NCBI GenBank assembly: GCA_035283685.1 | Contig: DATETJ010000002.1 | Location: 421,362 to 485,361 of the forward strand | From: Candidatus Bathyarchaeia archaeon | GTDB taxonomy: Archaea; Thermoproteota; Bathyarchaeia; Bathyarchaeales; Bathyarchaeaceae | DNA length: 64,000 nt | Direction: 5' to 3' | Part shown: one piece after another, positions 44,787 to 61,716 of the stretch | How the letters are laid out: every line of letters starts with the position of its first letter | Numbering within the stretch: the first letter of the stretch is position 1 | Position numbers and translations under genes: made by a program | Notes under the pieces: generated by a model | Told to the model about the DNA's origin: nothing | Database searches by the model: none | The model's input: only the letters and a program-made list of their open reading frames with translations

Positions 44787-46832
44787 ATGGACAATAGTAT
44801 GTTGAAGCGAGTATGCTTGACAGTGATTTGCATATCGATGCTCGCAGCAATGTTCTCCATTAGCCCCGCGTTTGCGCAACAGAGAGGTCCAAAACTAGAT
44901 CTCTATCGACTTAAGGTCACGAGGTCTCCGGCTGCTCAGTTGATTGAGATGACTACGGGTGCCAGTGAAGCGTGGGATGGTCTCATCCGACCCACTGACA
45001 TTGAAGAGATGGACCGCCAGGGTAAAGTTATCAGTTCTCGTGGTGGCTTCCACTACTGCCGTATCATCTTGAACTACAGGGTGCATCCACTTGACGATGC
45101 GAACTTCAGGCACGCCTTGTTCCATTTGGTGCCTAAAGACCGCATCATCGGCAACCTATTCAAGTACATCGTTGTGAAGGTTGACACTCCAGTGCCTCCA
45201 GCTCAAGCGTTGTGGTACAACCCCGCGGTTGACCCCCACGCCTACAGCCCTACAGAAGCAGAAGCAATTCTGGCTGCTGCAGGCTACCAGAAGATTGGAG
45301 GCGAGTGGAAGGACACGGATGGCTCAAACCTGCCTACTCTGCGCTTCTTCGTGCCGCTTGAAGTTGTGGCGCCTACGTCCTACACTATCGGTAGGATGGT
45401 GGTTGAGGAAGCTCAGGGCATCGGCTTGAACAACATTGACCTTCAACCAACTGACTTCGCCACGTACGTTGACAAGACTTTCAACCTGTGGGACTATGAG
45501 ATGTCGTGGGTTTGCCACGGTTTGGGCAGGTTCCCAACCCACTTGTTCTACCAGTTTAGTTCTGAAGAGAACTATCTGGGAAGCGGCAACCCTCACGGCA
45601 TAGTCTACCCAGCCCTGGATGCTAAGTTGTCCACTTTGTTGAGGAGCTTGAACCACGCGGACAAAGTTATTGCCGTGCGTGAGGCTCAGGTTCTCTTGAT
45701 GGGTGGATCAAGCAGCAGTCCAATGCCTCAAAATGTGCCGGCTACAGACCAAGCTTTGCCAACAGTTCCAATCTACTCTAGAAACTACTATGACATTCAA
45801 CAGCCCTACTTGCGCGGCGCCGTCAACATGTTCGGCTATGGCATTGCCAACGGCTGGACAATGTTGAACATTGAGAAAACCGCTGATCCTAACGGTCACG
45901 GAGCCAAAACCCTTGTGTGGATTGAGGACGAGTTCCCGGAGAGGTTGAACCCAACCTGGGCGTCAACGGTCTACGCGTGGGATTTCATGGAGAATTCATT
46001 TGACGGCTTGATGGCAACCAACCCATTCACTCACCGAGATGAGCCTTGGCTTGCCTCGAATGTAAGCGGATGGTCGTACGCGACTGAGCCGGGCGGCATG
46101 GCAGTAACCTTTAACATTAGGCTGAATGACCTGCACGGTTCACCAGTCCAATGGGCTGACGGTGATCCAGTTCAAGTGAGCGACATCAAGTTCTCGTGGG
46201 ACTTCCTCAAGAACAACACTATTCCAGCCTACTGGGGTGCTTTCAGGTTCTTCAAGAACGCCACTATCGTGGACGCGGACACTATTGTGGCTCACATGAC
46301 CACGACGAGCCAGTGGCTGGTCTACGATTTGGCTGGCACTGCTTACCTACTGCCGCCTCAAGTGTGGACTGTGGATCCACGTGATGGCTTGCCATGGGTT
46401 AACACCGCTGAGATAACAAGCTTTGACCCGTCTGCGCTGGCGTATCCTGATCCGGATGGTGGTGGACCGCTTCGTGCGCTTCCAAACCACTTGTTCGGGA
46501 CAGGCCCGTTCATACTGCAGCACTCAACCGCGTTCATGGCGACTAACGCTTACGGTGACCAGACTGCTAACCGCAACTACTGGTTAACTACGGCTGACAT
46601 CGATGCCATTATTGAGGACATGTTCTGGAGATCAGGTGACACCGTTGACAACGACGAAGTTGACATCACCGACCTAGACTTGATCGCCACATGGTTTGGC
46701 CAAAACGTGCCCCCAGCGCCTGTAAACGCTGACATCACCCGAGCTGCAGGTGGACCACCAGACACACTAGTAGACATCGACGACCTCGCAACAACTGGCA
46801 AATACTTCGGTGAAACCGAATCAGTGCCGTAA
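44787..46832 (+). CDS. ABC transporter substrate-binding protein (family 5, OppA/DppA-like) with C-terminal dockerin-like module
   Basis: 681 aa with a signal peptide (MLAAMFSISPAFA). The body is SBP_bac_5-like. The last 66 aa (nt 46632-46829) form two dockerin-type segments: GDTVDNDEVDITDLDLIATWFG and PPDTLVDIDDLATTGKYFG. Confidence 0.8.
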   Translation: MDNSMLKRVCLTVICISMLAAMFSISPAFAQQRGPKLDLYRLKVTRSPAAQLIEMTTGASEAWDGLIRPTDIEEMDRQGKVISSRGGFHYCRIILNYRVHPLDDANFRHALFHLVPKDRIIGNLFKYIVVKVDTPVPPAQALWYNPAVDPHAYSPTEAEAILAAAGYQKIGGEWKDTDGSNLPTLRFFVPLEVVAPTSYTIGRMVVEEAQGIGLNNIDLQPTDFATYVDKTFNLWDYEMSWVCHGLGRFPTHLFYQFSSEENYLGSGNPHGIVYPALDAKLSTLLRSLNHADKVIAVREAQVLLMGGSSSSPMPQNVPATDQALPTVPIYSRNYYDIQQPYLRGAVNMFGYGIANGWTMLNIEKTADPNGHGAKTLVWIEDEFPERLNPTWASTVYAWDFMENSFDGLMATNPFTHRDEPWLASNVSGWSYATEPGGMAVTFNIRLNDLHGSPVQWADGDPVQVSDIKFSWDFLKNNTIPAYWGAFRFFKNATIVDADTIVAHMTTTSQWLVYDLAGTAYLLPPQVWTVDPRDGLPWVNTAEITSFDPSALAYPDPDGGGPLRALPNHLFGTGPFILQHSTAFMATNAYGDQTANRNYWLTTADIDAIIEDMFWRSGDTVDNDEVDITDLDLIATWFGQNVPPAPVNADITRAAGGPPDTLVDIDDLATTGKYFGETESVP

Positions 46833-46849: not shown

Positions 46850-48256
46850 GTGAGAGGAAAAAGCATTTTGTGGTTGGCTCTTGCTGCGTTGCTGTTGGCT
46901 ATGCCTGCAGTTAACGTGCGGGCGCAGACCACAACTGTATATATAGATCCTCCATTGACCACTGGCCTAATGCCTGGCGACATCTTTGCGGTGAACCTGA
47001 TGGTGATGGGTGCTGTTGATCTGAAGTCATGGCAGGTTGAGTTGTCCTTCTCGAAGTACATGGCCACGCTAGCTGTCACCGACGTCATTGAGGGCGACTT
47101 CATGATGATTGGTGGCGATACCTTCATGGCTAAGTACGTGGATGCGTTCCACGGCTTGCTGAAGGTTGGTGTCACTATCCTCGGACAAGTCGGCGGCGTC
47201 TACGGTGATGGATGGCTAGCTACAATAATCTTCACTGTGCTAGAAGCAGGCGAAACTCCATTAGACCTACATGACACTATACTGTTGGACTCCATGGGCG
47301 TTGAGATGGCGCACGATGCAGTTGACGCCTATTATCTTGGACTCACTGCGGATATGTACAACGTGCCTGGCAGCAACCAGACAAGAGAAGGTGGCTGGAA
47401 GGCAGGAGACACCCGCAAGTTCAAGATGATAGTCCAAAACACAGGCTATGCACCACTCTATGTGCGTGCAAAGCACTCAACTGTGCGCGGCTCAGACAAC
47501 AAGGTGTTCAACCTGTACAGCGGCCAACACATGTACACAACAGTGCCTAGACCAACAACGTACTACAACGTGAGTGGCTACACACCCGCAGGCTTCTCTG
47601 ATTGGACAACAGTCGGTACAAGTCCATTCCTAGCCCCATGGGGACCAGCGGCAGGTGCTGGCGCGGACGGTAGCTACGTTCAAGCGAGCGACTACAGCCA
47701 GTTGACAGGCATAATTGACTTCCAGGACATCAGCTTGAACCCAGGAGACGTCATCCTGAGTGTAACGCTTGAAGCGTTCACAAAGGCAGACAGCACTGCA
47801 ATTGATATGGACGTCTACACGTATCCAGACTTTGCTTGGCTAGGTTCCTTGTGGGGTTCTGGAAGCTACGGCTGGAAGACTCAGAGATGGATAACAGGTC
47901 CAATTTCCGACTCTATGCCGTCGCTCAAGACCGCCGCAGGATTCAATAGCCTGAAGCTAGTGATTCACTACTGGACAGAAACTGGCGCTACGATGGGCAA
48001 CGCTTTCATGGAAGCGATCAGATTGAGAGTGGCTTTCACTGGAATTGATCCGTTGACTCCAGGCTTCTACACTATCATGCCAGGCGAACAGAAAGTCCTG
48101 CCAGCAGCGTTATGGGATCTATGGGCATTCGACGCAAACACCTACACAACAACTTCAACCCTTGAGTATCGATACAACTTCCCAGACCCACGATTCCCAA
48201 TGGTTTGGCAAACTGGTCAGCATACCAAAACGTTCACTTGGTGGGTCCGACCGTAA
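46850..48256 (+). CDS. Secreted cohesin-domain protein (class-1 cohesin + uncharacterised C-terminal module)
   Basis: GGAGGTG precedes the GTG at 46850 (the track ORF starts at 46835), and a signal peptide follows. The cohesin is at nt 46937-47341 (VYIDPP...KSWQVELSF...GDGWLATIIF). There is no TM anchor and no dockerin. Confidence 0.75.
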   Translation: MRGKSILWLALAALLLAMPAVNVRAQTTTVYIDPPLTTGLMPGDIFAVNLMVMGAVDLKSWQVELSFSKYMATLAVTDVIEGDFMMIGGDTFMAKYVDAFHGLLKVGVTILGQVGGVYGDGWLATIIFTVLEAGETPLDLHDTILLDSMGVEMAHDAVDAYYLGLTADMYNVPGSNQTREGGWKAGDTRKFKMIVQNTGYAPLYVRAKHSTVRGSDNKVFNLYSGQHMYTTVPRPTTYYNVSGYTPAGFSDWTTVGTSPFLAPWGPAAGAGADGSYVQASDYSQLTGIIDFQDISLNPGDVILSVTLEAFTKADSTAIDMDVYTYPDFAWLGSLWGSGSYGWKTQRWITGPISDSMPSLKTAAGFNSLKLVIHYWTETGATMGNAFMEAIRLRVAFTGIDPLTPGFYTIMPGEQKVLPAALWDLWAFDANTYTTTSTLEYRYNFPDPRFPMVWQTGQHTKTFTWWVRP

Positions 48257-48354: not shown

Positions 48355-50265
48355 GTGCTTCTGACGATGCTCGTTTCTTCGGTTTTGTTACTCGCAAATA
48401 TACATTCTGTGTCGCCCATTGTTTGGTCAAGCGAGAAACCGCTCCCAACTAACACGTCGTACTATGATGGATCTGCTTCGGTTACCCAGACATCGGATGG
48501 AAAAATTTGGGTAGTCTGGGACAAGGAGGTGCAGTCGCGCTGGTCTATTTTCTATACGACGTCGTCTGATTACGGCGCGACTTGGGCGCTTGAGCAAAAC
48601 CTCACCGCGGTTCCAAGTCAAGACTTTAACAAAGATCCGTCAATTGTTCAGCTGTCGAACGGAACAATAATAGTTGTGTGGGCAGCGCAGAAGAATCCGC
48701 CGCTTCTTCCCAATGATTTTGAAATGAGTGCATCGCCTAACGCGCTCACAATTCCTAGGGGAAGTTCAGGTTTTTCCAATATCACAGTCCATTCGCTGAA
48801 CGGCTTCAGTGACTTGGTGAGTTTGTCAACGAGGATTGGACCACCCACTCCACATATTACTACGGGTTTTAGCCCTCCTCAAGTGACGCCTCCGCCGAAC
48901 GGGAACGCTTATTCAGGTCTTACAATAAATGTTGGCGTGCAGACCCCTGTGGGCACGTACACTGTAACAGTGAGAGGCTACAACCAGGCGCTCGACGTAA
49001 CTCGAACCACGATTGTCACTGTGACTGTTCCTTCCACCTTAAGTTCACCTTCTTCGATGGTTAGCGACTTCTCGCCTGCGGCTGAGCCTACACAGTCTCC
49101 TTATGAACTTGTCTACAGAACCTCGTCAGATAATGGAACCACCTGGTCAGCTGAAAAGAAGCTTCCGCTTGACGATGCTTCTGGGGATAATTTGGCGCCT
49201 TCCATAATGCAGGCTGCTAATGGCTCTATTTGGCTTGTCTGGGTTTCTGGTCGGACGGGTAATTCCGAATTATATTATAAGACTTCGCCGGATGGGATTT
49301 CTTGGTCTAGTGATTTTCGGCTCACGTATAATGCGAGTGTGGATGGCAGCCCATCCATTGCGCAAATGCAAAATGGCAACATATGGGTTGTTTGGTCTAC
49401 GGACAGGTTTGGGTTAAACGAAGAGCTGATTTACAACGTTTACAATGGAACATCTTGGCTGGGTGAACAGCGGCTCACTAGCACCGTAGATTACATTGAC
49501 GTGTATCCCGCGATTCTTCAGGCATGGAATGGAACGATACGCGTATTCTGGACTATAATTGGTGTTCCAGGCGATGGCACAGGCGACATTTACTATGTGG
49601 AGTCAAATAACAATGGAACTTCGTGGTCAAGTCCGATTCCATTTACAACCGACACTCGGGAGGACCAGTGGGTTGCTGTGGCTGAGTCTGTGGACACGCG
49701 TATGTGGGTTGTGTGGACTTCGAATCGAACTGGTGGCTTTGACCTTTATTACAGAACTTCGCTTGTGCACAACTTGGCTGTCACTGTAGTTGATCCTTCG
49801 CCGCTCAGAGTCTACCAGAAAGAAAATGTGACGATAGATGTGACTGTGCGGAATTGGGGTGACTTTGGTGAATCCTTCACTTTGTCCTGTTACGCTAATA
49901 CTACCTTGGTATATTCTCGTCCAGTTACTTTAGCGTCTGGGGCTTGGACAACAGTGACTTTTGGATGGAATACGTCTGGTTTTGAGCGGGGCAACTACTA
50001 TGTGACCGCAGTGGCAAGCGTGGTCCTAGGTGAGATTTATGCTGGAGATAATTCTCTGACGCATTCAACTATTCGTGTGAAGCTTTTAGGTGACGTAGAT
50101 GACAGTGGGTTGGTCAACACGCGTGACATGTTTAATCTGGGAAAGGCTTTCGGATCTGTGCCTGGAAACCCTAATTGGAATGAAGAGGCAGACATGAACG
50201 GAGACAACGCAGTCAACACTGTTGATTTGTCGGAGTTAGTCGGCAACTTCGGCGCAACTGGCTAA
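48355..50265 (+). CDS. BNR/Asp-box repeat beta-propeller protein + Ig-like insert + CARDB + C-terminal dockerin
   Basis: The Asp-box motifs are SSDYGATW, SSDNGTTW, SPDGISW and SNNNGTSW. The CARDB region is HNLAVTVVDPSP...VTVRNWGD. The dockerin is at nt 50083-50262 (GDVDDSGLVNTRDMFNLGKAFG / ADMNGDNAVNTVDLSELVGNFG). Confidence 0.8.
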   Translation: MLLTMLVSSVLLLANIHSVSPIVWSSEKPLPTNTSYYDGSASVTQTSDGKIWVVWDKEVQSRWSIFYTTSSDYGATWALEQNLTAVPSQDFNKDPSIVQLSNGTIIVVWAAQKNPPLLPNDFEMSASPNALTIPRGSSGFSNITVHSLNGFSDLVSLSTRIGPPTPHITTGFSPPQVTPPPNGNAYSGLTINVGVQTPVGTYTVTVRGYNQALDVTRTTIVTVTVPSTLSSPSSMVSDFSPAAEPTQSPYELVYRTSSDNGTTWSAEKKLPLDDASGDNLAPSIMQAANGSIWLVWVSGRTGNSELYYKTSPDGISWSSDFRLTYNASVDGSPSIAQMQNGNIWVVWSTDRFGLNEELIYNVYNGTSWLGEQRLTSTVDYIDVYPAILQAWNGTIRVFWTIIGVPGDGTGDIYYVESNNNGTSWSSPIPFTTDTREDQWVAVAESVDTRMWVVWTSNRTGGFDLYYRTSLVHNLAVTVVDPSPLRVYQKENVTIDVTVRNWGDFGESFTLSCYANTTLVYSRPVTLASGAWTTVTFGWNTSGFERGNYYVTAVASVVLGEIYAGDNSLTHSTIRVKLLGDVDDSGLVNTRDMFNLGKAFGSVPGNPNWNEEADMNGDNAVNTVDLSELVGNFGATG

Positions 50266-50353
50266 CTGAGACCTGTCTCCTTCAATTATGGATAAGTTTA
50301 AATGTTTTATCTTCTCTGTTTTCCTACGAATCCTATTCACGCCTAAAGAGGAA

Positions 50354-51634
50354 ATGAGGATGCCGAAGCCTAAACATGTGTTGCTTTTGTTGAGTTTGTT
50401 TGTTTTGAGTCTTTCAGCTTTGAGTTTGGTCCCTTCGTCTGTGGAGCAGGTGAAGCCGCTTGTTTATGTTGATCCGACTCCTATTGATTTTGAGCCTGGC
50501 GAAAGTTTCAATATAAATATCACAATCAAGTCTGCTGTGAACGTGTTTGCTTGGGAGTTCAAGTTGTTGTGGAATGCGTCAGTTCTTAATTACACTGGAG
50601 CTGTTGAAGGCGACTTTCTTAAGGGTTTTCAAAACGCGTCCACTTATTGGGTTAACCCGGTGCTGACTCAAAACGTCAGTGACAAATATCGTGTTCTTCT
50701 TGGGGTTACTCGTTTAGGCGCTGATATTCCTGGGGTTAGCGGAAGTGGTAAGCTTGCTATGATAAGTTTTGATGTTTTGACCAAGGGCGAAACAACCTTA
50801 GATTTGGTGGAAACCAAATTGAGAGACAGCGTTCCAAATCCAATTGATCACGATTCGCGGGATGGTTTGTTCTCGAATACAGCTGGTTTTCCGCGACCTG
50901 ATTTTTCGTTCACTCCTGCTAAAGCGAATATTAATGAGACCATTACGTTTGATGCCAGCAATTCGACTGATGTTGATCAGGGCGTAGATCATTACATTGT
51001 TCTTTATTCTTGGAATTTCAGCGATGGCACTCCCGTCGTGGAGGAGGCTGGCGCCATTACTTATCATGCTTATTCTGAGGGTGGCACTTATGACGTGACT
51101 TTGACTGTTATGGACAATGATCGCTGGAACAGGTCGATTACTAAGGCGGTGAAGGTTCGGTTCACGTACGATGTCAAGGTCGCCGAGGTTAAAGCTGCGG
51201 TTGAGTCTGCTACAATTGGCGACAAAGTGGCTATTACGGTGAAGGTTAGCAATGAGGGTTCAGGCGATTTGACGAGTGTGAGTGTCACGGCTTATTATAG
51301 TGTAGGGTTGCAGTTGGGTACTGCTTTGGGTCCAGCGCAGACTACGTCGTTAGTTGTTGATCAGACTAAGACTTTGTCTTTCGAGTGGGACACTTCAGGT
51401 GTGGCTAAGGGCAGCTACCGAATTAACGCGGCGGTTGCTCCTGTTGCAGGTGAGCCTGAACAAGCTCAGGAGGATAATACGAGCCGGGGTGGCACGGTTA
51501 CGTTGGTTGAGGTTCAGGAGACTCCTTGGCTCTTGTACGGTGGCATTATCGCCGGAGTTGCCGTGGTGGCTGTTGTCGGTTTCCTGTTTATGAGGCGCCG
51601 AGGCGGCGGTGGCAAGCAAACTCCAATTCGCTAG
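50354..51634 (+). CDS. Membrane-anchored cohesin (class 2) - PKD - CARDB surface protein
   Basis: The start is taken at MRMPKPKHVLLLL (the track ORF starts at 50288). The cohesin is at nt 50459-50875 (NVFAWEFKLLW...GSGKLAMISF). The PKD motif is FDASNST...YSWNFSDGT and the CARDB motif is VTVKVSNEGSGD. A C-terminal TM helix plus RRRGGGG follows. Confidence 0.8.
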   Translation: MRMPKPKHVLLLLSLFVLSLSALSLVPSSVEQVKPLVYVDPTPIDFEPGESFNINITIKSAVNVFAWEFKLLWNASVLNYTGAVEGDFLKGFQNASTYWVNPVLTQNVSDKYRVLLGVTRLGADIPGVSGSGKLAMISFDVLTKGETTLDLVETKLRDSVPNPIDHDSRDGLFSNTAGFPRPDFSFTPAKANINETITFDASNSTDVDQGVDHYIVLYSWNFSDGTPVVEEAGAITYHAYSEGGTYDVTLTVMDNDRWNRSITKAVKVRFTYDVKVAEVKAAVESATIGDKVAITVKVSNEGSGDLTSVSVTAYYSVGLQLGTALGPAQTTSLVVDQTKTLSFEWDTSGVAKGSYRINAAVAPVAGEPEQAQEDNTSRGGTVTLVEVQETPWLLYGGIIAGVAVVAVVGFLFMRRRGGGGKQTPIR

Positions 51635-51848
51635 ACCCGGAAACTTCTAGCATCTCTTTTTTCTTGTGGTCTTTTTGGAAATCTGTTTCTTAGTAGAGGC
51701 AAGTTCTGGCGTTTGATGCGCCTTTTTCCATTATAGTGTGGTTACAATAATCGTCTAGTATTGTGTTTAGTAGATGTGTTCAGCAACTTTTAAATTGTGT
51801 CTTGCATTTAGTTTCACATGTTCAACGTTGGAGAGAGAAGGCGAGGAC

Positions 51849-54761
51849 ATGAAGAAACCTAATCCGCGTCAGGTTTACGGCATAATTGTTTTACTCACGG
51901 TTTTGATCACTCCATTTCTGCCATTAGTACCAACGGCGAAATCACAAGCTTCAACAATCGTGTATGTCGATCCCCCTTCCACTACGGGCTTATTGCCCGG
52001 AGACATTTTCGCTGTTAACATAATGATCTCGGGCGCTGTCGATCTGAAATCATGGCAGTTCAAAATGTCTTTTCAAGGAGTCATCGACGGAGTGCTAATG
52101 GTCACCGATGTCATTGAAGGCGACTTCCTGATGATAGGAGGCACAACCTACTTCACCAAGAACATTAACAATGACGCTGGCTGGGTTCAAGCCGCCGCCA
52201 GCATTCTGGGTCAGGTGGGCGGCGTGTACGGAGACGGCTGGTTGGCAACAGTGATCTTTAAAGTTGTTGGAGGCGGCGAAAGCCCGCTCGACCTGCATGA
52301 CACGATACTTCTTGATTCAAACAGTGCTGCGATTCCGCATGATGTAACTGACGGGAGTTATGTTGGTGCTGCACCTTATGCCTCTTTCAGTTACCGTCCG
52401 TATGAGGTGATTGATGGCTATGAGCCTGCAGCTAATCAAACAGTCACGCTTAATGCTACTGACAGCTACGATCCAGAAGGAACGATTATAGCAGACTATG
52501 CCTGGAACATCACCACAGCTGATTTGGCGGAAGTTATCGCAGCTTTCAGTACAACTGATAAAATCTCAACGCACAGCTTCACAAAAGAAGGGCTATACCT
52601 TGTGAAACTCAATGTTACTGACAGCGATTCGCCGAATCCCCATTGGGATGCGACTAACAAGACTATTAACATTGTAAGAAGAGACATAAACGTCACTAAG
52701 GTCGAAGTCGTGCCCATTGGAGAGATCATACCTGGGACTTTGATAAGCATCAATGTTACTGTCCAAAACATTGGAACTGGACAAGAAGACTTCGGTGTAA
52801 CCACATTCTATAATGGCGTTCCAATAAGCACCACGCAGATAATAGGACTGAGCCCGAAAACTCCCGGGACACCATATTTGCAGTACACTAAAAGCACAGT
52901 GCATACTTGGGATACAACGGGCATCCCAGAAGCTGTATACGCCATAAAAGGCGTGGCAATCACAGACCCCGGCGAGAACAACATAACAAACAACGAGCTT
53001 GTTGGCGGAAGCGTAACGATTGCATCCGCGAGCAGGCTCATATACAATATTCCAGTTTTTGGCAGAACGTTCACAGTCGGGATACGCACGGACTCGCTGG
53101 CGTCTGCTGATGCGAATGAAATGTTTGTTCACGGCGAGAAAAAATTGACCTTTAACGTCACAGGACAACAAGGAATCTTACGCTTCTCAAACGTAACATT
53201 ACCGCATGATCTACTGAACGCCTCAAGTCCAACAGCGTGGATTGTTAAACTAAACGGCTCCAACACCAACTACATGGCAATATTCAACAGCACTCATTAC
53301 TTCATATACCTCAACTACACATTCGCAAGCGCTTACACAGTGAGTATAATAGGAGAAAGCGTTGCCGACCCACCACAGCCTATCCTAATAATCACACCAA
53401 CACGAGGGGTCGCCGGTCAACCTGTGACACTTGATGCCTCCTCGAGCACAGATCCTGACGGTCACGGTTTCACCGAGTTCTTTTACTGGGCTTACAGGGT
53501 TTCTGCGCAGGGTGACAAAATCAATTTCTGGAACAAAACCACGACCGACGATTCAGTTACCGTGGTGTTTAACCAGTCTGCCCTCAGTCTGAACTCGCTA
53601 CGAGTGACCTTGACCATTACGGACAGCTGGGGAATGGAGAACACGACTCAAGAGCAAATTCTCGACGTGTTGTGGCCGTTTGACATAGCCTTAGTAGACA
53701 TTGACGTCTCCAAGGACTCCATCAACATAGGTGAAGCAATTTTCATCAATGTGACAGTGACAAGTGTCCTCGATACTCATGGCGACAAAGTGCTGTTCAA
53801 AGTCACAATATATGGCAATGATACCACATTGACGACGAAGCTGGTCAAACCTAACATACAACCTCCGGAAATCCAAGTGCCCGAAGTTGGCATTAATGCA
53901 CGAGCGGATTTCGAATGGAACACAACAAGCTTGGCAATCGGCACTTACACGCTGAAAGCAACTGTAACAGTCGTCGAGTATTCCACTATACGCACGAATC
54001 TTCCTGCGGAAATCAACATCACAGATAACATGCTGACTTACGGCGAGGTAACAATAAAGAAATGGGGAAGTCTAGTAACCATGGTACTGTCGCCTTCAAC
54101 AATTAACATAGGACAAGACACCAAGATCAGCGGGGCGGTAACTCGTTCAGCAACTTCGCTTACAGATGTCCCCGTAACCGTTCAGTACAGAGGCTCTGGA
54201 CAAACCGGCGCATGGACTGACGCTGCAACAGTGAACACAAACGTTCAAGGACAATATCAATACACATGGAAGCCCCTCTTGGCTGGCAACTATGACATAA
54301 GAGCTAGTTGGGCTGGAGACAGCATCACGTCGGCTAACGTGAGCACAACCAGAGCTTTAGTAGTTCGTCAAGCAATAAGTGAGATAACCATCGAGGTCAC
54401 AGCCAGATCAGCAACTGCAGGCTCCACAATAACCATTAGTGGCACAATCACCCCTTATGCGCCTGCTGTATCAGTGACAATTAATGTGCGGAAAGACGGC
54501 GGAACTTGGACAACGCTGGTTACAGTGACAACTGACGCTCAAGGCAACTATCAGTATGGATGGAAGCCAGGCGAAGCTGGAAGCTACGAACTGCAAGCAA
54601 CATGGGAAGGTAACGTTAACGCCGGGGCGAGCGAAAGCGACATCAAAACCGTGTCAGTGTCCGCTGATGGATTACAAAGCATCTACATATACATCGCTGT
54701 GGGAGCAATCATACTTATCGCTGTGGTTGCGGCAGTGTTCTTCCTTAGAAAGAGAAAATAA
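51849..54761 (+). CDS. Large membrane-anchored cohesin (class 1) protein with PKD/CARDB/Ig-like array
   Basis: The start is taken at MKKPNPRQ (the track ORF starts at 51774). The cohesin is at nt 51960-52367 and is close to the module at 30816-31223. It has PKD-like motifs (LDASSSTDPDG), CARDB-like segments and two tandem Ig-like repeats (NVQGQYQYTWKP / DAQGNYQYGWKP). A C-terminal TM helix plus FLRKRK follows. Confidence 0.8.
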   Translation: MKKPNPRQVYGIIVLLTVLITPFLPLVPTAKSQASTIVYVDPPSTTGLLPGDIFAVNIMISGAVDLKSWQFKMSFQGVIDGVLMVTDVIEGDFLMIGGTTYFTKNINNDAGWVQAAASILGQVGGVYGDGWLATVIFKVVGGGESPLDLHDTILLDSNSAAIPHDVTDGSYVGAAPYASFSYRPYEVIDGYEPAANQTVTLNATDSYDPEGTIIADYAWNITTADLAEVIAAFSTTDKISTHSFTKEGLYLVKLNVTDSDSPNPHWDATNKTINIVRRDINVTKVEVVPIGEIIPGTLISINVTVQNIGTGQEDFGVTTFYNGVPISTTQIIGLSPKTPGTPYLQYTKSTVHTWDTTGIPEAVYAIKGVAITDPGENNITNNELVGGSVTIASASRLIYNIPVFGRTFTVGIRTDSLASADANEMFVHGEKKLTFNVTGQQGILRFSNVTLPHDLLNASSPTAWIVKLNGSNTNYMAIFNSTHYFIYLNYTFASAYTVSIIGESVADPPQPILIITPTRGVAGQPVTLDASSSTDPDGHGFTEFFYWAYRVSAQGDKINFWNKTTTDDSVTVVFNQSALSLNSLRVTLTITDSWGMENTTQEQILDVLWPFDIALVDIDVSKDSINIGEAIFINVTVTSVLDTHGDKVLFKVTIYGNDTTLTTKLVKPNIQPPEIQVPEVGINARADFEWNTTSLAIGTYTLKATVTVVEYSTIRTNLPAEINITDNMLTYGEVTIKKWGSLVTMVLSPSTINIGQDTKISGAVTRSATSLTDVPVTVQYRGSGQTGAWTDAATVNTNVQGQYQYTWKPLLAGNYDIRASWAGDSITSANVSTTRALVVRQAISEITIEVTARSATAGSTITISGTITPYAPAVSVTINVRKDGGTWTTLVTVTTDAQGNYQYGWKPGEAGSYELQATWEGNVNAGASESDIKTVSVSADGLQSIYIYIAVGAIILIAVVAAVFFLRKRK

Positions 54762-54894
54762 GGCGGGCATTGAACTCGTAGACGCTTTCTCCCATCTTTC
54801 TGTATGCTCTGGCTTATAGACGACAATTACACAAACGATTTATATTTGACTGCAGTTTTATTACGTGTAGTTGGCAGTAGAGGGAGAGAAAGAG

Positions 54895-56076
54895 ATGAAA
54901 CGTGTACTAGCAATAGCACTATTTATGATTATAGGTTTCAGCGCAGTTTTCAGCATGGTAAAAATAACTTCAGCAACAACAATCATAACTTTGAGTATTG
55001 ACCCCCTGAAAGTTCCTGGAAAAGTCGGAAGAAACATCACATTCGACATCGCCATCAGCGGAGTCAACTCATCCGTCCTTGACTTGTGGGCGTGGGAACT
55101 CAAACTCAACTGGACAGACATTGACTTCAACTACGTCAGCGCAGTGCAAGGTTCGTTCCTTGCACAAAGCGGCACCACCTTCTGGGTCTCACCAATTAGG
55201 AGCGGCACAGGAGGCAACGAAACTTTGACTTTGGCTTGCACGCGTACGGGAGCCGGATCAGGCTCCTTGGGTAGCGGTGTTCTAGCCACCATAACCCTAT
55301 ATGTGGTCGGTGGAACATCAGGATCCAAATTTGACCTTTACTCCATCAAGCTGCGGAACAGCCTCCTTAATCCAATTGAGCCGCCAACATACGATGTAAG
55401 CGTGCTCGATCAAGTGGGCGAGTTTGCACGACCAAGAAGCTATGATCTCGAACCGGTGTTTGGCGAGGTTGACATTTATGATCTAGCGGTCGTAGGAGTG
55501 AACTACGGAACAAACGTTATCCGCGTCACAAAGATTGCCACACAATGGGCAGTAGCAGGTGGAGCTGGATGGCTCAATCCAGAGTTTGTGGGATCTTCTG
55601 ATGACACTCGGGCATCCGAAACGACTCTCAACGATGCACATAGATGGACTAACTTCGGCTTCAACACAACATCTTGGACGGGAGTGAGTAAAGTCGAAGT
55701 GGGGCTGGAGAGAATGGTTGACAGCAGCTTCAGATTGATAACCGTTGCAATGTCCAACGACAATGGCGGAACTTGGAGCGCCACGACGTTTACTCACAAC
55801 GCCTCTGACCAATTTGACACTCTCGTCTGGGTCGATGTAACCACAGCATACGCTTGGACCAAAGCAATGGTGAATAACATCGCGGTCAGACTGACCTATG
55901 CTTCGGCTACAGGAACAACATTCCGTCTTGACTACTTGGCTATTAGGGTCACTCCGTCTCCAGTGCTTTTGCCGCCAGAGGTATTTGATCCAGAAGCGGA
56001 TGTAGACAACGACCTTAACGTTGACATTGATGACTTGGTCAGAGTGGCGACCAATTATGGGGAGTACGAACTATAA
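54895..56076 (+). CDS. Cohesin + split-dockerin protein (putative adaptor)
   Basis: The start is taken at MKRVLAIALF (the track ORF starts at 54871). The cohesin is at nt 54982-55425 (LWAWELKLNW...GSGVLATITL). The dockerin half-sites are at nt 55441-55512 (GEVDIYDLAVVGVNYG) and 55978-56073 (DVDNDLNVDIDDLVRVATNYG). They are separated by about 155 aa. Confidence 0.75.
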   Translation: MKRVLAIALFMIIGFSAVFSMVKITSATTIITLSIDPLKVPGKVGRNITFDIAISGVNSSVLDLWAWELKLNWTDIDFNYVSAVQGSFLAQSGTTFWVSPIRSGTGGNETLTLACTRTGAGSGSLGSGVLATITLYVVGGTSGSKFDLYSIKLRNSLLNPIEPPTYDVSVLDQVGEFARPRSYDLEPVFGEVDIYDLAVVGVNYGTNVIRVTKIATQWAVAGGAGWLNPEFVGSSDDTRASETTLNDAHRWTNFGFNTTSWTGVSKVEVGLERMVDSSFRLITVAMSNDNGGTWSATTFTHNASDQFDTLVWVDVTTAYAWTKAMVNNIAVRLTYASATGTTFRLDYLAIRVTPSPVLLPPEVFDPEADVDNDLNVDIDDLVRVATNYGEYEL

Positions 56077-56092
56077 TTTGGAGGGAGCGTGA

Positions 56093-57685
56093 ATGAACAA
56101 AGCAATCAAGATTATGTTGCTTCTGCTTGCACTTGCACTAGCTTCAGTCCTTACAGCTTCAGACAAAGTTGCGCCTTTCCAAATCGAAAGCGCTAGCGCA
56201 CCTCCAGTTACCGGTACGTATGCTTCCCGCCCCAGCAATTACACATTTAGTAGTGGGGTATTCGCGAGATTCCCAGACAGAGCGTACGATGGCAGCAACG
56301 CAACAACAAACGTTGCCAATTGGGCCCACACCAACGGAGCAGGTTACGGCACATCTAACGGCTACTTTGAGCTAAACGTCTACGGTCCGAGGGCAGCACC
56401 GCCTAGGGGTTCAAGAATCACGCGGGTTGATCTGCATGTTGTTTTCTTTGTGGTATCGCAGACGTCAGATACCGGAGCCACAATGTACATCAACTATCGG
56501 GTAAGTCCGAGCACTACTAACACTACTCTTCAATCGTGGACTCGAGCACAGCTAAACGTTAGTGCTCCCTGGCATAACAGAACTTATACCAATCAAGCAG
56601 ATCCCAACGGCGGCGGATGGGCTTGGGAAGACTTATCCAACCTGAAGTTCCGGTTCAACAGACAAGACCCGAGTACGCCAAGCACCAGCGGCGTCTTACG
56701 AATCCATGAGGTTTGGGCAACTGTTTACTACGAGTTTACGCAAACAGTCGCCATCTATCCAAAGATTCAATCGCCTATTCCTTCCCAAGTCAAAATAAAC
56801 GTCACAGGAATAGAGGAGCTGTACGGCTTTGAGTTTAAGATGACCTACAACGCAACAGCGATAACTGTGACAAGCGTCCAATTAGGACCATATCTGAACA
56901 CCACGGCTGGTGCAGGAAACACTTATGGCGCTCTACTCAAACTGAATGACACAGCAGGCTTCGTTTGGGCTACACAATCAATTCGAGGAAACATTAGAGG
57001 CGGAAACATAGCTTACGGAACTTGGCAAACGCTAGCCACAATAAACATCGCTACCCAATCTGGTGGACCAACCAACCTCAACTTCGAAGTCAAACTCGCA
57101 GGACACAACTACCTCATAAAGAAGGCATACCCCGGTTCCTTCACACTAATCCAGCCTGGACATGACGTTGCAGTAACAAACATCGTTCCAACACCAACAA
57201 CGGTAACGCGAGGAGACAACGTAACAGTTGACGTCACAGTCAGAAACGACGGCGACTACATCGAAACATTCTACCTATCAACCTACGCTAACACATCAGC
57301 CGCAACCTCGCTAATAGAAACCAAAACCGTGAGCGGCTTAGGCTTAGGCGCAACCCAAGTAGTGTCCTTCACATGGAACACCCGCGACTTCCCGAGAGGC
57401 AACTACACAGTCAGCGCAGTAGCAGCTACAATAGGCGTACTAGACACAGACTCAACTGACAACACACTATACAACCTAGCCTCAGTAGTAGAAGTCAACC
57501 CACTCTTCGGCGACATAAACGAAGACGGCTGGGTAAGCAGCGCCGACCTCGCAGCCATCAACTTCTCATGGGGAACCCAACCCGGAGACCTACTCTGGAA
57601 CTTGAACGCTGACCTAAGCAGCGACAGCTTCATAGACGCTGAAGACCTCAGACTACTCGGCGAAGCCTGGGAACCACCAGCATAA
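56093..57685 (+). CDS. Unknown N-terminal module + cohesin + CARDB + C-terminal dockerin protein
   Basis: It has a GGAGGGAG RBS and a signal peptide. The cohesin is at nt 56744-57151 (LYGFEFKMTY...WQTLATINI). The CARDB region is HDVAVTNIVP...VTVRNDGD. The dockerin is at nt 57500-57673 (GDINEDGWVSSADLAAINFSWG / ADLSSDSFIDAEDLRLLGEAW). Confidence 0.8.
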   Translation: MNKAIKIMLLLLALALASVLTASDKVAPFQIESASAPPVTGTYASRPSNYTFSSGVFARFPDRAYDGSNATTNVANWAHTNGAGYGTSNGYFELNVYGPRAAPPRGSRITRVDLHVVFFVVSQTSDTGATMYINYRVSPSTTNTTLQSWTRAQLNVSAPWHNRTYTNQADPNGGGWAWEDLSNLKFRFNRQDPSTPSTSGVLRIHEVWATVYYEFTQTVAIYPKIQSPIPSQVKINVTGIEELYGFEFKMTYNATAITVTSVQLGPYLNTTAGAGNTYGALLKLNDTAGFVWATQSIRGNIRGGNIAYGTWQTLATINIATQSGGPTNLNFEVKLAGHNYLIKKAYPGSFTLIQPGHDVAVTNIVPTPTTVTRGDNVTVDVTVRNDGDYIETFYLSTYANTSAATSLIETKTVSGLGLGATQVVSFTWNTRDFPRGNYTVSAVAATIGVLDTDSTDNTLYNLASVVEVNPLFGDINEDGWVSSADLAAINFSWGTQPGDLLWNLNADLSSDSFIDAEDLRLLGEAWEPPA

Positions 57686-59261: not shown

Positions 59262-59759
59262 CTAACTCTGCTTCACAACCGCCGAACCCCTAAGCTCAAC
59301 CACTTGCTTATCAACATACTCCCAGAACAAACTTTCAAACTCGCTCATCGCCTCTTGCAGCCTCACATCCCTCAAAAAAAGCCCTCCCCCACCAAAAACC
59401 GAACCAACATAACCCAAAACCATCCCCAACGAAAACCCACTAGTCTTCCTCCCAGGCACAAACTCCACCTTAAAAAACTCCGGACTACCAAAAACCCTCA
59501 CATTAACCCGGAAATGAACATTCACCGCCTCTATTTTGAAACCCGAGCCAAAACGCTCCAACTTAGTCTCAAACTTGTTGTCAACGAAAAAACGCTCTAC
59601 ACCCTCACTGAACAACCGGAGATCCACATTCTGATCAGACCACTCATCTTTCACAGTTTCAATCCCTACATAACCAGAAAGCAGAAACGATGTTTTAAAA
59701 CCTTTTTGACGCCGACCAACGTCACTTAGACTTCCTCCGCTTCCGCCAAAAAACAACAA
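59262..59759 (-). CDS. Hypothetical protein
   Basis: 165-aa ORF whose 5' end overlaps the upstream gene by 38 nt, so the start is uncertain. No family recognised. Confidence 0.4.
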   Translation of the reverse strand: MLFFGGSGGSLSDVGRRQKGFKTSFLLSGYVGIETVKDEWSDQNVDLRLFSEGVERFFVDNKFETKLERFGSGFKIEAVNVHFRVNVRVFGSPEFFKVEFVPGRKTSGFSLGMVLGYVGSVFGGGGLFLRDVRLQEAMSEFESLFWEYVDKQVVELRGSAVVKQS

Positions 59760-61716
59760 TCACAACAAAAGCCACAGCCGCTACAACCACAATCACCAGA
59801 CCAGTAAGCCACACATCCAAAAACCTAGGCGACACAACCACATCTCGCTGACTCTGACCACTCCAATAACCATCCTTAGACGCATTCACCACTAGCTCAA
59901 CAACCTGCCGCTCAGCGATCGAGGGCACCGTGAACTTCACCTGAAAACTCCCCTCCAAATCAGTTACACCCCTCTGCAGAGAGAAAACCCCAGACGCATT
60001 AGAAAAAAACGTAATATTAACTCCAGCAACCGCACTCAAACCATCAGTAACATAAACGTCAATAATCAACTCGCCACCCACACTCACACTCGGAGCATTA
60101 AGAACCATCGCGACAACCAAAGTTGGCAACGCCCTCAAAACCAGAGAGGCATTACTGCCACTCCCAAACCCTAAATCATCAATCACACTCAAAAACACCG
60201 TGAAATTGCCAGGCAACACATACGCATGAATCACGGTGGGCTCAAAAACCCAGCCACTGTCAGAACCGTCGCCAAAATCAAAAAAATAACGCTCAATTCG
60301 CCCATCATCACCTGACTTGGACGCATTAAAAGTAACCGCTTCGTTAACAGCCAACAAACTCTTATCCGCTTCCAACAATGCAAAGGGTCGCTCATTAGCC
60401 ACTGCACTCAAGAGAAACGGCGTGAAATCCAAATCCACGCCATTGCCGTCCACAGGATTCCCCTTTCCACCAGGGTTTAGAGCTGGGTGATATGGACCGC
60501 TGGCGTCACCCCAGAAATTGAACTCCGCATTCACAACAGCCTCGTCAGTAACGTTCATCCCGTAAACATTGCCATAAATGTCGTTCATGCCAGCAACATT
60601 ATACGTGTCACCAGTAACATTGACCCCGTAACCATTGTACGAAATCGAATTCCCTGCAATCTTGGTTTTAACCCCCTCCTCAACAGGTCTCGACCGTCCT
60701 CCAGAAATAAAAATCCCAAAACCCACATTCTCAGAAATGACGTTCTCAGACACCAGCACATCAAACTCAGAACTCACATGGTGGAAATTTGCGTAAACAT
60801 AAAGCCCAGCTTGGTTGAAAACCACTCGATTACCTAAAACAGATGCATTGTAAATGGAGCCAAACCACGGTCCACCGCTGTACAAGTAGATCCCATCAAA
60901 ATTGTAAGCCACAGTATTGTTCGAGATCACGACATTCAGAATTCGACTTATGTCATAATCAAAGAAGCCCGCCCAAATGAAAAAGTACAAACCCCGCCCA
61001 TTGTGAACAACATTGTTGCCAATGATCGCCACATCTGAAATAGTTGCACCTCGCGTGGCCCACGCCTCAAGACGAATCCCATTCTCATTATGCTGAATTA
61101 CACTATCGACGATGCTTAGACCCGAGACGATGTCACCGCTACTTGACACACCGTTTCCATTGATTTCGATCAGCGAATCTCTTATGTTAACATGATTTCT
61201 GCCTTCGACATGGACGCCGCTGATCAGACAGTGGGCGATTTTGGAGCTTTCGATTTCAGCTGTTCCCAGACTTTGCACAGTAATCCCGTACCGGGCATAT
61301 TCCACGACTGCGTTTCTCATTTGAAATCGCTCGTTTTGTGTGCCGTTGAATTTTATTGTGCCCCAGTCTCCTGGCGTCGGTTGAGGCTTGCCTGACGTGA
61401 AAACTATAGAGCTGGTCTCGGTTCCGAGGGCTTGCAGACTTCCGCTCACTATCAGAGAGTAGTTGCCTTGAAACTTGATTTCAACCCCGGGTTCGATCGT
61501 GAGTGTGGCACCGCCCTCTACGAGGATGTCGCTTGTGATTATGTAAGGGCTGCCAGAAACCGTCCACGTAGTGTTTTGGGATATTTGAGCTCCAATCAAA
61601 CCTGAGCTCAGGCCAGCTGCATTCATGAATAGGGGTACGCCGGCAAGAGAGCTGAAGAGCAACGCAGCCTGCAAGATTAACAAAACTGGTTTCATGACTT
61701 TGCTTGGAATCGACAT
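59722..61716 (-). CDS. Surface protein: parallel beta-helix (PbH1/NosD-like) + PKD + Ig-like + C-terminal TM anchor
   Basis: 664 aa with a signal peptide and beta-helix repeats (VISNNTVAYN, VLGNRVVFNQ, ISENVISEN). The PKD motif is FNASKSGDDGRIERYFFDFGDGS. A C-terminal TM helix plus WRKRRKSK follows. Confidence 0.75.
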   Translation of the reverse strand: MSIPSKVMKPVLLILQAALLFSSLAGVPLFMNAAGLSSGLIGAQISQNTTWTVSGSPYIITSDILVEGGATLTIEPGVEIKFQGNYSLIVSGSLQALGTETSSIVFTSGKPQPTPGDWGTIKFNGTQNERFQMRNAVVEYARYGITVQSLGTAEIESSKIAHCLISGVHVEGRNHVNIRDSLIEINGNGVSSSGDIVSGLSIVDSVIQHNENGIRLEAWATRGATISDVAIIGNNVVHNGRGLYFFIWAGFFDYDISRILNVVISNNTVAYNFDGIYLYSGGPWFGSIYNASVLGNRVVFNQAGLYVYANFHHVSSEFDVLVSENVISENVGFGIFISGGRSRPVEEGVKTKIAGNSISYNGYGVNVTGDTYNVAGMNDIYGNVYGMNVTDEAVVNAEFNFWGDASGPYHPALNPGGKGNPVDGNGVDLDFTPFLLSAVANERPFALLEADKSLLAVNEAVTFNASKSGDDGRIERYFFDFGDGSDSGWVFEPTVIHAYVLPGNFTVFLSVIDDLGFGSGSNASLVLRALPTLVVAMVLNAPSVSVGGELIIDVYVTDGLSAVAGVNITFFSNASGVFSLQRGVTDLEGSFQVKFTVPSIAERQVVELVVNASKDGYWSGQSQRDVVVSPRFLDVWLTGLVIVVVAAVAFVVIVVFWRKRRKSK

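Follow-up and report, generated by a model that had tools for sequence, protein, structure and literature searches.

The cohesin-dockerin gene cluster

Judged from its predicted protein sequences, the locus is a conserved seven-gene cell-surface cohesin-dockerin cluster within the window (the whole stretch of 64,000 nucleotides analysed), in which one module recurs on three cohesin-bearing adaptors. The three module regions are termed M1 (47567-48043), M2 (55513-55965) and M3 (56210-56731). The modules and the genes around them are arranged as follows:

44787..46832, + strand: oligopeptide-type solute-binding protein with C-terminal dockerin-like repeat pair (SBP_bac_5 1.4e-30; helix motifs 37 aa apart)
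46961..47296, + strand: cohesin-like domain of ORF 46835 (aa 43-154; weak Pfam Cohesin match, E 0.21)
47567..48043, + strand: M1, probable highly diverged module copy (aa 245-403 of ORF 46835-48256)
48355..50265, + strand: protein with BNR/Asp-box propeller, CARDB and dockerin (Pfam BNR_2, CARDB and Dockerin_1)
50288..51634, + strand: cohesin, PKD and CARDB protein with C-terminal hydrophobic stretch (Pfam and translation)
51774..54761, + strand: large surface protein with PKD, Big_3_5 and C-terminal hydrophobic stretch (translation and Pfam)
55513..55965, + strand: M2, predicted jelly-roll module with Asp-box SNDNGGTWS (aa 215-365 of ORF 54871-56076)
56210..56731, + strand: M3, probable diverged module copy of its own subfamily (aa 40-213 of ORF 56093-57685)
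56786..57658, + strand: rest of ORF 56093 (partial cohesin, aa 232-291; CARDB, aa 367-458; contiguous dockerin, aa 473-522)

Five ORFs of the cluster (46835, 50288, 51774, 54871 and 56093) count as putative cohesin carriers, and four dockerins are recognised. The AOR gene, 64-67 % identical to Bathyarchaeota MAGs, points to an uncultured archaeal host, probably of the Bathyarchaeia. The synteny of the cluster is kept in contigs L045 and L048. The L045 orthologue of ORF 46835 carries a faint cohesin flag, and the N-terminus of ORF 51774, the L045 orthologue of which has a weak Pfam cohesin match, is apparently paralogous to the cohesin of ORF 46835. ORF 46835 (473 aa) has no exact record; at its position, the identical contig L003 is annotated with a gene of 462 aa. 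Both the C-terminus of ORF 50288, where a hydrophobic stretch is followed by basic residues, and the C-terminal hydrophobic stretch of ORF 51774 were read by eye as putative transmembrane anchors. In ORF 56093, Pfam detects CARDB (7e-7), Cohesin (9.7e-5) and Dockerin_1 (2.1e-4). With its surface cohesins and dockerins, the cluster resembles the non-cellulosomal systems of A. fulgidus and ANME, where archaeal cohesin-dockerin proteins include dockerin-tagged OppA/NikA-type binding proteins according to the consulted sections of the published account (PMC9012536); neither the module nor a split dockerin is mentioned in those sections.

Relationship of the three regions

The original prediction described, by eye, a module of some 150 aa that is colinear across M1, M2 and M3 and defined by four peptide blocks, (a) to (d). 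All 12 quoted peptides were found in frame at the coordinates given, and the block positions are colinear (63/101/126/148 in M1, 58/85/120/138 in M2 and 70/107/142/164 in M3). Direct comparison of the three regions gave no computed similarity: pairwise BLASTP remained at chance level (best E 0.16-5), local and global alignments scored z = -0.4 to +0.9 (500 shuffles) and hhalign of thin profiles returned probabilities below 2 %. An iterated M2 HMM run against all 346 ORFs of the window matched ORF 54871 only, and neither M1 nor M3. Word-indexed homologue searches with M1 and M3 came back empty, and a pattern scan of metagenome and genome contigs with one M1 sequence or a two-sequence alignment found no further M1 relatives. 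The kinship of the three regions is visible solely with family profiles and not with single sequences of the window, M1 and M3 being tied to the M2 family by profile-profile comparison only (91-95 %).

The M2 family profile comprises about 146 columns and retrieved 260 family clusters at E<=1e-3, counted as cluster representatives; with clusters defined at 50 % identity, this number is a lower bound. M2 itself matches the profile with E 1e-84, M2 being the seed, so that this match holds by construction. The M3 family aligned to the M2 family with an hhalign probability of 94.6 % (E 6.6e-8) and, in a second run, 91.1 % (E 1.1e-6), and the single M3 sequence outscored 163 of 163 decoys. Of the 151 proteins retrieved, 17 or more contained modules of the M3 type, which repeatedly adjoin M2-type modules within the same protein.

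For M1, two orthologues were found by synteny, in contigs L045 and L048, while the contigs of P0006, P0009, P0016 and P0004 lack an orthologue of ORF 46835. The resulting orthologue triplet matched the M2 family at 91.2 % (E 9.8e-7) and, with a second alignment, at 94.7 % (E 6.3e-8, 123 columns), the two independent alignments being colinear from end to end over 115-136 columns. Support for M1 climbed with the number of sequences, from P 0.013 with one via 3.4e-5 with two to 1e-6 with three. The triplet (hhalign score 41.3) ranked above 23 of 23 matched orthologue-triplet decoys, which reached at most 31.0 (an Asp-box protein) or, for decoys devoid of an Asp-box, 17.8; since likeness in the Asp-box alone can thus score 31, values in the 40s carry considerable but not overwhelming weight. 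An HMM of the triplet gave weak matches, almost solely to M2-family domains and in register. The single M1 sequence, compared with 229 family domains by phmmer and sub-family HMMs, did no better than decoys, and profile-profile comparison of M1 with M3 was not significant (P 0.07-0.095); the M2 family is therefore the hub of the relationship.

Such noise-level results of pairwise and thin-profile comparison, the rank of single M1 among decoys and the insignificant M1-M3 comparison are what would be expected if only M2 belonged to the family and the likeness of M1, perhaps also of M3, reflected a chance pattern of amphipathic β-strands in secreted archaeal proteins rich in Trp and Thr. This explanation is very unlikely in view of the steady rise in support with added orthologues, the two independent end-to-end alignments, the ranking of M1 above all matched triplet decoys, the in-register matches of the triplet HMM to M2-family domains and the recurrence of M2-type and M3-type modules as neighbours within single proteins.

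The first reading of the three regions is thus confirmed as an observation: family-profile hhalign (91-95 %) bears out a shared, colinear unit of about 150 aa. It overturns the outcome of direct comparison, which, taken literally, fulfils the condition for refutation set with the original prediction (computed alignments devoid of significant similarity). Blocks (a), (c) and (d) are in register in all three regions. Block (b) holds for M2 and M3 but has to be shifted in M1, where profile alignments place 'GSLW' opposite the M2 motif 'GGTW', some 8 residues N-terminal to the quoted 'YGWKTQRW'.

The surroundings of M1 were also inspected for a host domain. After in-silico excision of M1 and joining of its flanks, Pfam yielded no CARDB; the spliced flanks of the orthologue triplet aligned with a local CARDB (PF07705) profile at an hhalign probability of 12 % (P 0.0025) over 76 columns spanning the junction, and by this weak match M1 may be nested within a CARDB-like Ig domain.

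Composition of the module family

No Pfam or NCBIfam model covers the module, and all members looked up are unnamed or annotated as 'hypothetical', in agreement with its initial description as uncharacterised. A restriction of the module to the cohesin/dockerin system, as had also been proposed, does not apply to a family of 260 clusters in which cohesin/dockerin proteins account for about 14 % of the members. Among 105 members scanned, Pfam cohesin was detected in 15 and dockerin in 13; despite this minority share, both are the commonest partners of the module, others being PKD, CARDB, LamG, subtilase, a KaiC-type ATPase and a T9SS sorting tail. Proteins contain one to six module copies, and many members are tandem arrays of two to six. 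Nested as well as tandem variants occur in orthologues P0015 and P0003, and one orthologue harbours an M2-type copy nested within an M3-type copy.

At mid-domain, members of the M2 family carry an Asp-box hairpin (S-x-D-x-G-x-(T/S)-W), of which S81 and G85 are nearly invariant. M2 has SNDNGGTWS at this site; M1 (FAWLGSLWGS) and M3 (TNTTLQSWT) retain the Trp alone and lack the motif, yet both are kept in orthologues. PDB sequence searches with M1, M2 and M3 revealed no relative except via the Asp-box motif. Likewise, the sole Pfam models with sub-threshold matches on the module are reelin subrepeat B and other Asp-box sandwiches: Reelin_subrepeat-B (PF21471) reached at best 24.1 bits (in P0003; gathering threshold 27 bits), confined to positions 50-80, and did not match ORF 54871. 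Reelin subrepeat B and the Mo-co dimerisation domain of sulfite oxidase resemble M2 in combining a sandwich or jelly-roll with a single Asp-box; the matches to these non-propeller Asp-box sandwiches are limited to some 30 residues at the motif and stay under the gathering score, and reelin is not among the best 50 structural matches of M2. A relationship to reelin or BNR was dismissed, as the Asp-box motif by itself accounts for the matches.

Fold of the module

The AF2 model of M2 (pLDDT 96.3, pTM 0.90) was assigned with Foldseek to the β-jelly-roll fold with about 10 strands; M1 and M3, judged by homology, would share this fold. The best Foldseek matches of M2 in the PDB are CBM36, CBM61, CBM32, CBM22, CBM35, CBM6 and CBM4 (E 4e-5 to 1e-3, TM 0.5-0.67), at 8-15 % identity and an rmsd of 4-6 Å. 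The module is like CBMs in fold class and size and differs from them in its Asp-box hairpin, and Pfam CBM models neither matched the proteins of the window nor stood among the families listed for the 105 members.

Structurally closer to M2 than the CBMs are phage tail-type proteins in BFVD (TMq 0.70-0.78, rmsd 2.8-4.5 Å, 13-18 % identity), all uncharacterised and represented by predicted structures. They include A0A516MDM0, A0A6J7XSE0 and proteins of Sphingomonas phage Kharn and of Methanobacterium virus Drs3 (tail protein). Searched at the tblastn level, 50,697 phage genomes contained no match to a consensus-like member of the family.

A probable dockerin split by the module

In ORF 54871, M2 is flanked by the following features:

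54973..55428, + strand: cohesin domain (aa about 35-186; AF2, Foldseek and family profile)
55432..55512, + strand: dockerin repeat 1 (PRSYDLEPVFGEVDIYDLAVVGVNYGT; helix kept, Ca-loop degenerate)
55984..56067, + strand: dockerin repeat 2 (FDPEADVDNDLNVDIDDLVRVATNYGEY; canonical Ca-loop and helix)

The full-length AF2 model (pLDDT 86.8) yielded Foldseek matches dominated by cohesins, and the cohesin domain superimposes on 1g1k (TMt 0.77) and on 2xdh of A. fulgidus (TMt 0.71). The family profile matched PDB cohesins with E 2.7e-6, and the single sequence reached a sub-threshold 15.3 bits with PF00963. Dockerin helix motifs are located at aa 200-213 and 384-397, i.e. with a spacing of 184 aa, and AF2 places helices at both repeats (202-210 and 386-394). 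Versus PDB dockerins, the family profile scored E 0.04-0.3 on the side of repeat 1 and E 1.6e-5 (2y3n_B) on that of repeat 2. The same architecture, a module nested between two dockerin repeats, was detected in 15 proteins (at least 14 relatives besides ORF 54871), with a repeat spacing of 171-187 aa versus 33-37 aa in contiguous dockerins. The stretch between the repeats comprises about 158 aa, a whole folded domain, or about 300 aa and two modules in P0003. The spliced halves aligned with contiguous dockerins from end to end at 98.6 %, a value that holds partly by construction, as the same regular expression picked both sets.

Two independent, possibly vestigial half-sites on either side of M2, which would render ORF 54871 a cohesin and a module with degenerate tails, are an unlikely reading of these flanks. 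It draws on the lack of a Pfam dockerin in ORF 54871, whether intact or with M2 excised in silico, and on the loss of Ca-ligand positions 1, 3 and 5 in repeat 1 (LEPVF vs DxNxD). Against it stand the conservation of the arrangement in 15 proteins, most of which have canonical DxNxDGxID Ca-loops in both halves, the alignment of the spliced halves, the profile matches to PDB dockerins on both flanks and the relative P0021, which passes the Pfam Dockerin_1 threshold (24.1 vs 22.9 bits). The split dockerin proposed initially for the host protein is upheld by the helix motifs, the PDB dockerin matches on both flanks and the spliced-half alignment.

Type I dockerins (PF00404) share with ORF 54871 two C-terminal F-hand repeats of Ca-loop plus helix; ORF 54871 reaches neither the contiguity nor the gathering score of this family. 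Repeats and cohesin reside on one protein, with profile matches to PDB dockerins. X-module-dockerin (XDoc) dyads of type II and III systems likewise tie an accessory β-sandwich closely to a dockerin; there, an Ig-like X-module lies ahead of the dockerin, whereas in ORF 54871 a predicted jelly-roll lies inside the dockerin, and M2 gave no match to X-modules by sequence or fold (Foldseek). In the dockerin survey of R. flavefaciens FD-1, the longest inter-repeat regions span 37-45 aa (PMC2930009), and the linkers of these long-linker group 1 dockerins contrast with the folded domain of about 158 aa in ORF 54871. No earlier description of a dockerin with a whole domain between its repeats was found.

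Probable origin and possible function of the module

M1, M2 and M3 are most probably anciently diverged copies of one unnamed superfamily of extracellular β-jelly-rolls, a plug-in cassette that decorates three adaptors. M2 would represent the large core family bearing the Asp-box hairpin, M3 a sister subfamily and M1 a small, fast-evolving, lineage-specific branch. The cassette occurs alone at the N-terminus (M3), in tandem arrays and nested within other domains; where it is nested in a dockerin, the two dockerin halves may fold back onto each other at its foot.

CBMs also serve as accessory modules of cellulosomal scaffoldins and enzymes. The CBM-like fold renders a binding role plausible for the module, which was put forward at first as a candidate functional or recognition unit of the system, and by this analogy the module may function in binding or adhesion; as no CBM family matches by sequence, ligand binding is an analogy only. 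In the way a scaffoldin CBM serves a cellulosome, the module could bind a glycan or another polymeric or surface ligand and thereby target or anchor the complex.

Alternatively, a homologous module could act structurally, as a buttress or spacer comparable to an X-module that supports dockerin or cohesin interfaces or sets inter-domain geometry, with the Asp-box providing contacts. This role is possible, albeit rather doubtful. The Asp-box of jelly-roll and Ig-like sandwiches is exposed at the surface and often contributes to contacts between domains (PMC2716378). Nesting within a dockerin recalls the XDoc dyads, arrays of up to six copies resemble stalks, and a conserved CBM-type binding motif was not identified. 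Conversely, the solved structures closest in fold are, with few exceptions, CBMs that bind ligands or toxin and phage modules that bind receptors, M1 and M3 are kept in orthologues despite lacking the Asp-box, and the very fast divergence of the copies fits a surface under diversifying selection better than a buttress.

A more speculative and highly improbable variant of the binding role would make the nested jelly-roll a ligand sensor that renders cohesin binding conditional: binding of ligand or Ca would shift the F-hand geometry and thereby activate or silence the dockerin, or select between its two binding modes. If so, the archaeal surface complex would assemble in response to substrate, and the cassette nested in other domains would provide similar control elsewhere.

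Independent of function, a colinearity recognised by eye that failed all direct statistics was rescued only via orthologues fetched by synteny. The nested dockerin matters for dockerin detection, because Pfam misses it, and suggests that a folded domain can be accommodated in the loop between the repeats, which may be of relevance for engineering. A sizeable domain family unnamed in current domain libraries, comprising at least 260 clusters and two diverged sister branches, is newly delineated and receives a confidently predicted fold; it is, among the unexplained portions of archaeal cohesin-dockerin proteins, the most frequent. For the cohesin-dockerin systems of non-cellulolytic archaea, a CBM-like module present on three adaptors of one conserved cluster, next to a peptide-binding protein with a dockerin tag and to a BNR propeller, offers a testable point, namely what the complex sticks to.

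Gene cluster and module positions

The original prediction had aligned by eye, in four peptide blocks (a) to (d), three window regions of about 150 amino acids (M1, M2 and M3) located in the cohesin-bearing proteins ORF 46835, ORF 54871 and ORF 56093, each named by its start nucleotide. Their genes belong to a cluster of seven (window 44787–57685, + strand) beside oligopeptide ABC transporter permease and ATPase genes.

Modules (in-frame translation) and gene products of the cluster in conserved order
M1: nt 47567–48043, + strand, aa 245–403 of ORF 46835–48256
M2: nt 55513–55965, + strand, aa 215–365 of ORF 54871–56076
M3: nt 56210–56731, + strand, aa 40–213 of ORF 56093–57685
Gene 1, + strand: dockerin-tagged solute-binding protein (SBP_bac_5)
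Gene 2, + strand: cohesin and M1 (ORF 46835-like)
Gene 3, + strand: dockerin-tagged BNR propeller (BNR-CARDB-dockerin)
Gene 4, + strand: cohesin-type protein (cohesin-PKD-CARDB), putative transmembrane anchor
Gene 5, + strand: large cohesin-type protein (~950 aa), putative transmembrane anchor
Gene 6, + strand: cohesin and split dockerin (ORF 54871-like)
Gene 7, + strand: M3, cohesin, CARDB and dockerin (ORF 56093-like)

The putative anchors of genes 4 and 5 are C-terminal hydrophobic stretches recognized by eye. Two of the three module-carrying cohesin proteins also possess a dockerin. According to Pfam, ORFs 46835 and 54871 begin with a cohesin-like domain, and ORF 56093 contains cohesin, CARDB and dockerin domains. 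The order of the seven genes is kept in L045 and L048, two metagenomic archaeal contigs, at ~30–45 % protein identity, and the cluster looks like a dedicated surface-complex operon. Dockerin-tagged OppA/NikA and multi-cohesin proteins, of unknown function there, are recorded for ANME archaea (PMC9012536).

Further surface-protein genes flank the cluster at 28593–31391 (−), 34559–36886 (−), 59722–61716 (−) and 61825–63372 (+), the last two of which are next to the cluster in L048 as well; these four encode a protein with three PKD domains and a cohesin, two proteins of the NosD/right-handed beta-helix type that also contain PKD or Ig domains, and a gingipain-like peptidase C25. Elsewhere in the window (19467–24676), long ORFs overlap on opposing strands: 19467–20009 (+) and 21370–22230 (+) with 19524–21632 (−), and 23240–24247 (+) with 22445–24676 (−). 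The minus-strand ORFs match NCBIfam models (multicopper oxidase, aldehyde ferredoxin oxidoreductase), and the plus-strand ORFs may be spurious. The DNA is of archaeal origin: the window's aldehyde:ferredoxin oxidoreductase shares 64–67 % identity with Bathyarchaeota MAGs, and of the 35 further relatives of this protein, 34 carry archaeal titles. The window sequence also recurs unchanged within an 802-kb ENA metagenome contig. The 473-aa, TTG-start version of ORF 46835–48256 has no record in the protein collection, and the gene at the same position in the identical contig L003 encodes 462 aa; the true start is therefore probably ~11 codons downstream.

Direct comparison of the modules

All peptides quoted in the original prediction were found in frame, with the four blocks in identical order and at similar spacing. 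Alignment with hhalign retained the register of blocks (a), (c) and (d) in all three modules and of block (b) in M2 and M3, but replaced 'YGWKTQRW' by 'GSLW' as block (b) of M1. Direct alignment revealed no significant similarity, an outcome that on its own wording would have refuted the original prediction: pairwise BLASTP yielded E 0.16–5, alignment scores (Smith-Waterman and semi-global, two matrices) were ≤1 standard deviation from 500 shuffles, and thin profiles from few close homologues (M2 with P0001 and P0002; M3 with its L001 orthologue) gave hhalign probabilities <2 %. Significance was attained by family profiles; the observation was right, but the three sequences alone could not have demonstrated the relationship.

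The M2 family and its fold

Exhaustive HMMER searching of 1.84 billion cluster representatives matched the M2 profile to 260 proteins at E ≤ 1e-3 (51 at E ≤ 1e-10). Local iteration yielded 230 domain copies in 151 proteins, with one copy in 112 and two to six, often head to tail, in 40. The consensus is W-x-N-P-x-x-A-Y-x-S-D-x-x-Y-A ... Y-x-x-Y-G-F ... I-x-x-V-E-V ... S-x-D-G-G-x-x-W ... W-x-D-V-T ... W-T ... N-F-x-V-R ... L-D-W-x-P-V-x-V-T-Y. In a scan of 105 members, the module fell under no Pfam family; likewise, Pfam has no model for M1, M2 or M3 in the window ORFs, NCBIfam returned nothing for the three, and sequence searches of the PDB with each gave no meaningful match. The few sub-threshold Pfam matches (Reelin_subrepeat-B, BNR, Mo-co_dimer) all fell on the Asp-box (S-x-D-x-G-x-(T/S)-W), a hairpin motif recurring in unrelated folds (PMC2716378). 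All ten members looked up were unnamed or 'hypothetical'. Cohesin (15 of 105) and Dockerin_1 (13 of 105) are the commonest Pfam partners, but most members have neither; KaiC-type ATPase, PKD and CARDB (three each) follow, and Laminin_G_3, Big_3_5, a subtilase and a T9SS tail are rarer. The module is thus uncharacterized, as proposed, but its family is not private to cohesin/dockerin proteins.

AlphaFold2 modelled full-length ORF 54871 (50-row alignment) at a mean pLDDT of 86.8, with 92–97 in the module. Its N-terminal domain is, according to the model, a genuine cohesin (Foldseek TM 0.71–0.77 to solved cohesins, including Archaeoglobus fulgidus 2xdh). M2 alone (63-row alignment; pLDDT 96.3, pTM 0.90) was confidently predicted as a jelly-roll of about ten strands and two short helices. 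Among solved structures, it is matched best by jelly-roll carbohydrate-binding modules (CBM36 7ay3, CBM61 2xom, CBM32 5xnr/7d29, CBM22, CBM35, CBM6, CBM4, CBM11); Cry-toxin domain III and a phage baseplate protein come next, and these matches have E 4e-5 to 1e-3, TM 0.5–0.67 and 8–15 % identity. The modelled fold class is clear, with no close solved relative among the PDB matches, and M2 represents a new unnamed family inside a well-known fold class. Predicted viral structures (BFVD), mostly of unnamed phage proteins but including a tail protein of Methanobacterium virus Drs3, match the model better (TM 0.70–0.78); no BLAST-level similarity to the module was detected in phage genomes. These structural matches hint that the M2 or a sister family may be used in viral host-recognition proteins.

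Probable homology of M1, M2 and M3

HMM-HMM comparison linked the M2–M3 and M2–M1 families at hhalign probabilities of 91–95 %. In phmmer searches of the 151 retrieved proteins, M3-type modules (E 1e-7 to 1e-46) were found adjoining M2-type modules in the same proteins without overlap (P0004, P0015, P0016, P0093, P0101, P0111, P0009 and others). The M3 profile (17 sequences) matched the M2-family profile at 94.6 % (E 6.6e-8 over 83 columns; the global mode covers 143), and independent MAFFT alignments of 14 M3 and 63 M2 sequences did so at 91.1 % (E 1.1e-6, 110 columns). Even single M3 outscored 163 of 163 decoy windows cut from other window ORFs. On these profiles, M3 is assigned to a sister subfamily of the M2 family.

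Sequence searches found no relatives of M1, and single M1 aligned colinearly with the M2 family but scored no better than decoys (P 0.013–0.024). ORF 46835 orthologues recovered by synteny from L045 and L048, contigs of close ORF 54871 relatives, have modules 33 % and ~44 % identical to M1. The signal grew with sequence number, from P 0.013 (one) via 72 % and P 3.4e-5 (two) to 91.2 % for the orthologue triplet (E 9.8e-7 local; E 1.9e-7 over 136 columns global); a second run gave 94.7 % (E 6.3e-8, 123 columns). As a matched control, orthologue triplets of all other parts of the seven syntenic genes (23 windows) were scored alike. The M1 triplet reached 41.3, the best controls 31.0, 24.8, 23.2 and 20.3, all from the BNR protein, which really does share the Asp-box with the M2 family; all other windows scored ≤17.8. 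This BNR-CARDB-dockerin protein (window 48355–50265) cross-matches the M2-family profile via Asp-box repeats only (hhalign score ≤31, P 7e-5), which gauges how far one common hairpin motif inflates profile scores. Weak matches of the M1-triplet HMM fell almost all on M2-family domains, in register, among them that of the ORF 54871 orthologue P0005. Direct M1–M3 profile comparison was not significant (P 0.07–0.095), making the M2 family the hub joining them; linkage through a hub family is usual for very remote homologues. It is highly probable that all three modules are homologous.

Split dockerin and nested modules

The dockerin helix motifs of ORF 54871, VDIYDLAVVGVNYG at aa 200 and VDIDDLVRVATNYG at aa 384, are 184 residues apart, versus 33–37 in the window's three contiguous dockerins, and coincide exactly with AlphaFold helices. 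Fourteen cluster representatives share this arrangement (171–187 residues), most with a canonical D-x-N-x-D-G-x-I-D loop in each half. Once the module is removed in silico, the joined halves match contiguous dockerins along their whole length (98.6 %, E 7e-16), partly by construction as one helix regex picked both sets, but the loops beyond the regex match too. The family profile also matches PDB dockerins on either flank of the module (C-terminal E 1.6e-5, N-terminal 0.04–0.3); Pfam recognized no dockerin in ORF 54871. The split dockerin, as originally predicted, is real and conserved. No description of a dockerin with a module between its repeats was found in the literature consulted, the longest inter-repeat region reported for Ruminococcus flavefaciens FD-1 dockerins being 37–45 aa (PMC2930009). 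The first repeat of ORF 54871 (55432–55512) no longer has the Ca ligands at positions 1, 3 and 5 (YDLEPVFGEVDIYDL), and the second (55984–56067) is canonical (DVDNDLNVDIDDL). This asymmetry recurs in the orthologues P0001 and P0005, both loops being kept in more distant split dockerins, and may entail a single binding mode.

In P0003, the L045 orthologue of ORF 54871 (L045:10001–11698), two tandem M2 modules (aa 229–379 and 379–529) occupy the place of M2 before the C-terminal dockerin repeat; copy number inside the dockerin thus differs among close relatives. The L048 orthologue of ORF 56093 (P0015; L048:10001–12040) carries a complete M2-type module (aa 110–262) inside an M3-type module, after the block (a) strand (M3 positions 4–96 = aa 43–135; 85–174 = aa 273–362), i.e. 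one jelly-roll nested within another. Domain nesting needs termini near each other, which is typical of CBM-type jelly-rolls. The sequences flanking M1 (window 47360–47566, …GDTRKFKMIVQNTGYAPLYVRAKH…; 48044–48253, …YTIMPGEQKVLPAALWDL…TYTTTSTLEY…) are suggestive of one CARDB-type Ig domain cut in two by M1; the spliced orthologue triplet matched a local CARDB profile at 12 % (P 0.0025), and Pfam found no CARDB match in the flanks.

Functional implications

As scaffoldin CBMs and the receptor-binding modules of phages suggest by analogy, the module may be a binding unit which would tether the cohesin-dockerin assembly, including the peptide-binding protein and the BNR propeller, to a glycan, a polymer or the cell's own envelope. 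The main alternative, a structural X-module-like buttress with the Asp-box making domain contacts, a role known for this motif (PMC2716378), appears less likely. The very rapid divergence between module copies would suit a binding unit with diversified specificities. A new unnamed family in a known fold class and an apparently undescribed dockerin architecture are combined here.
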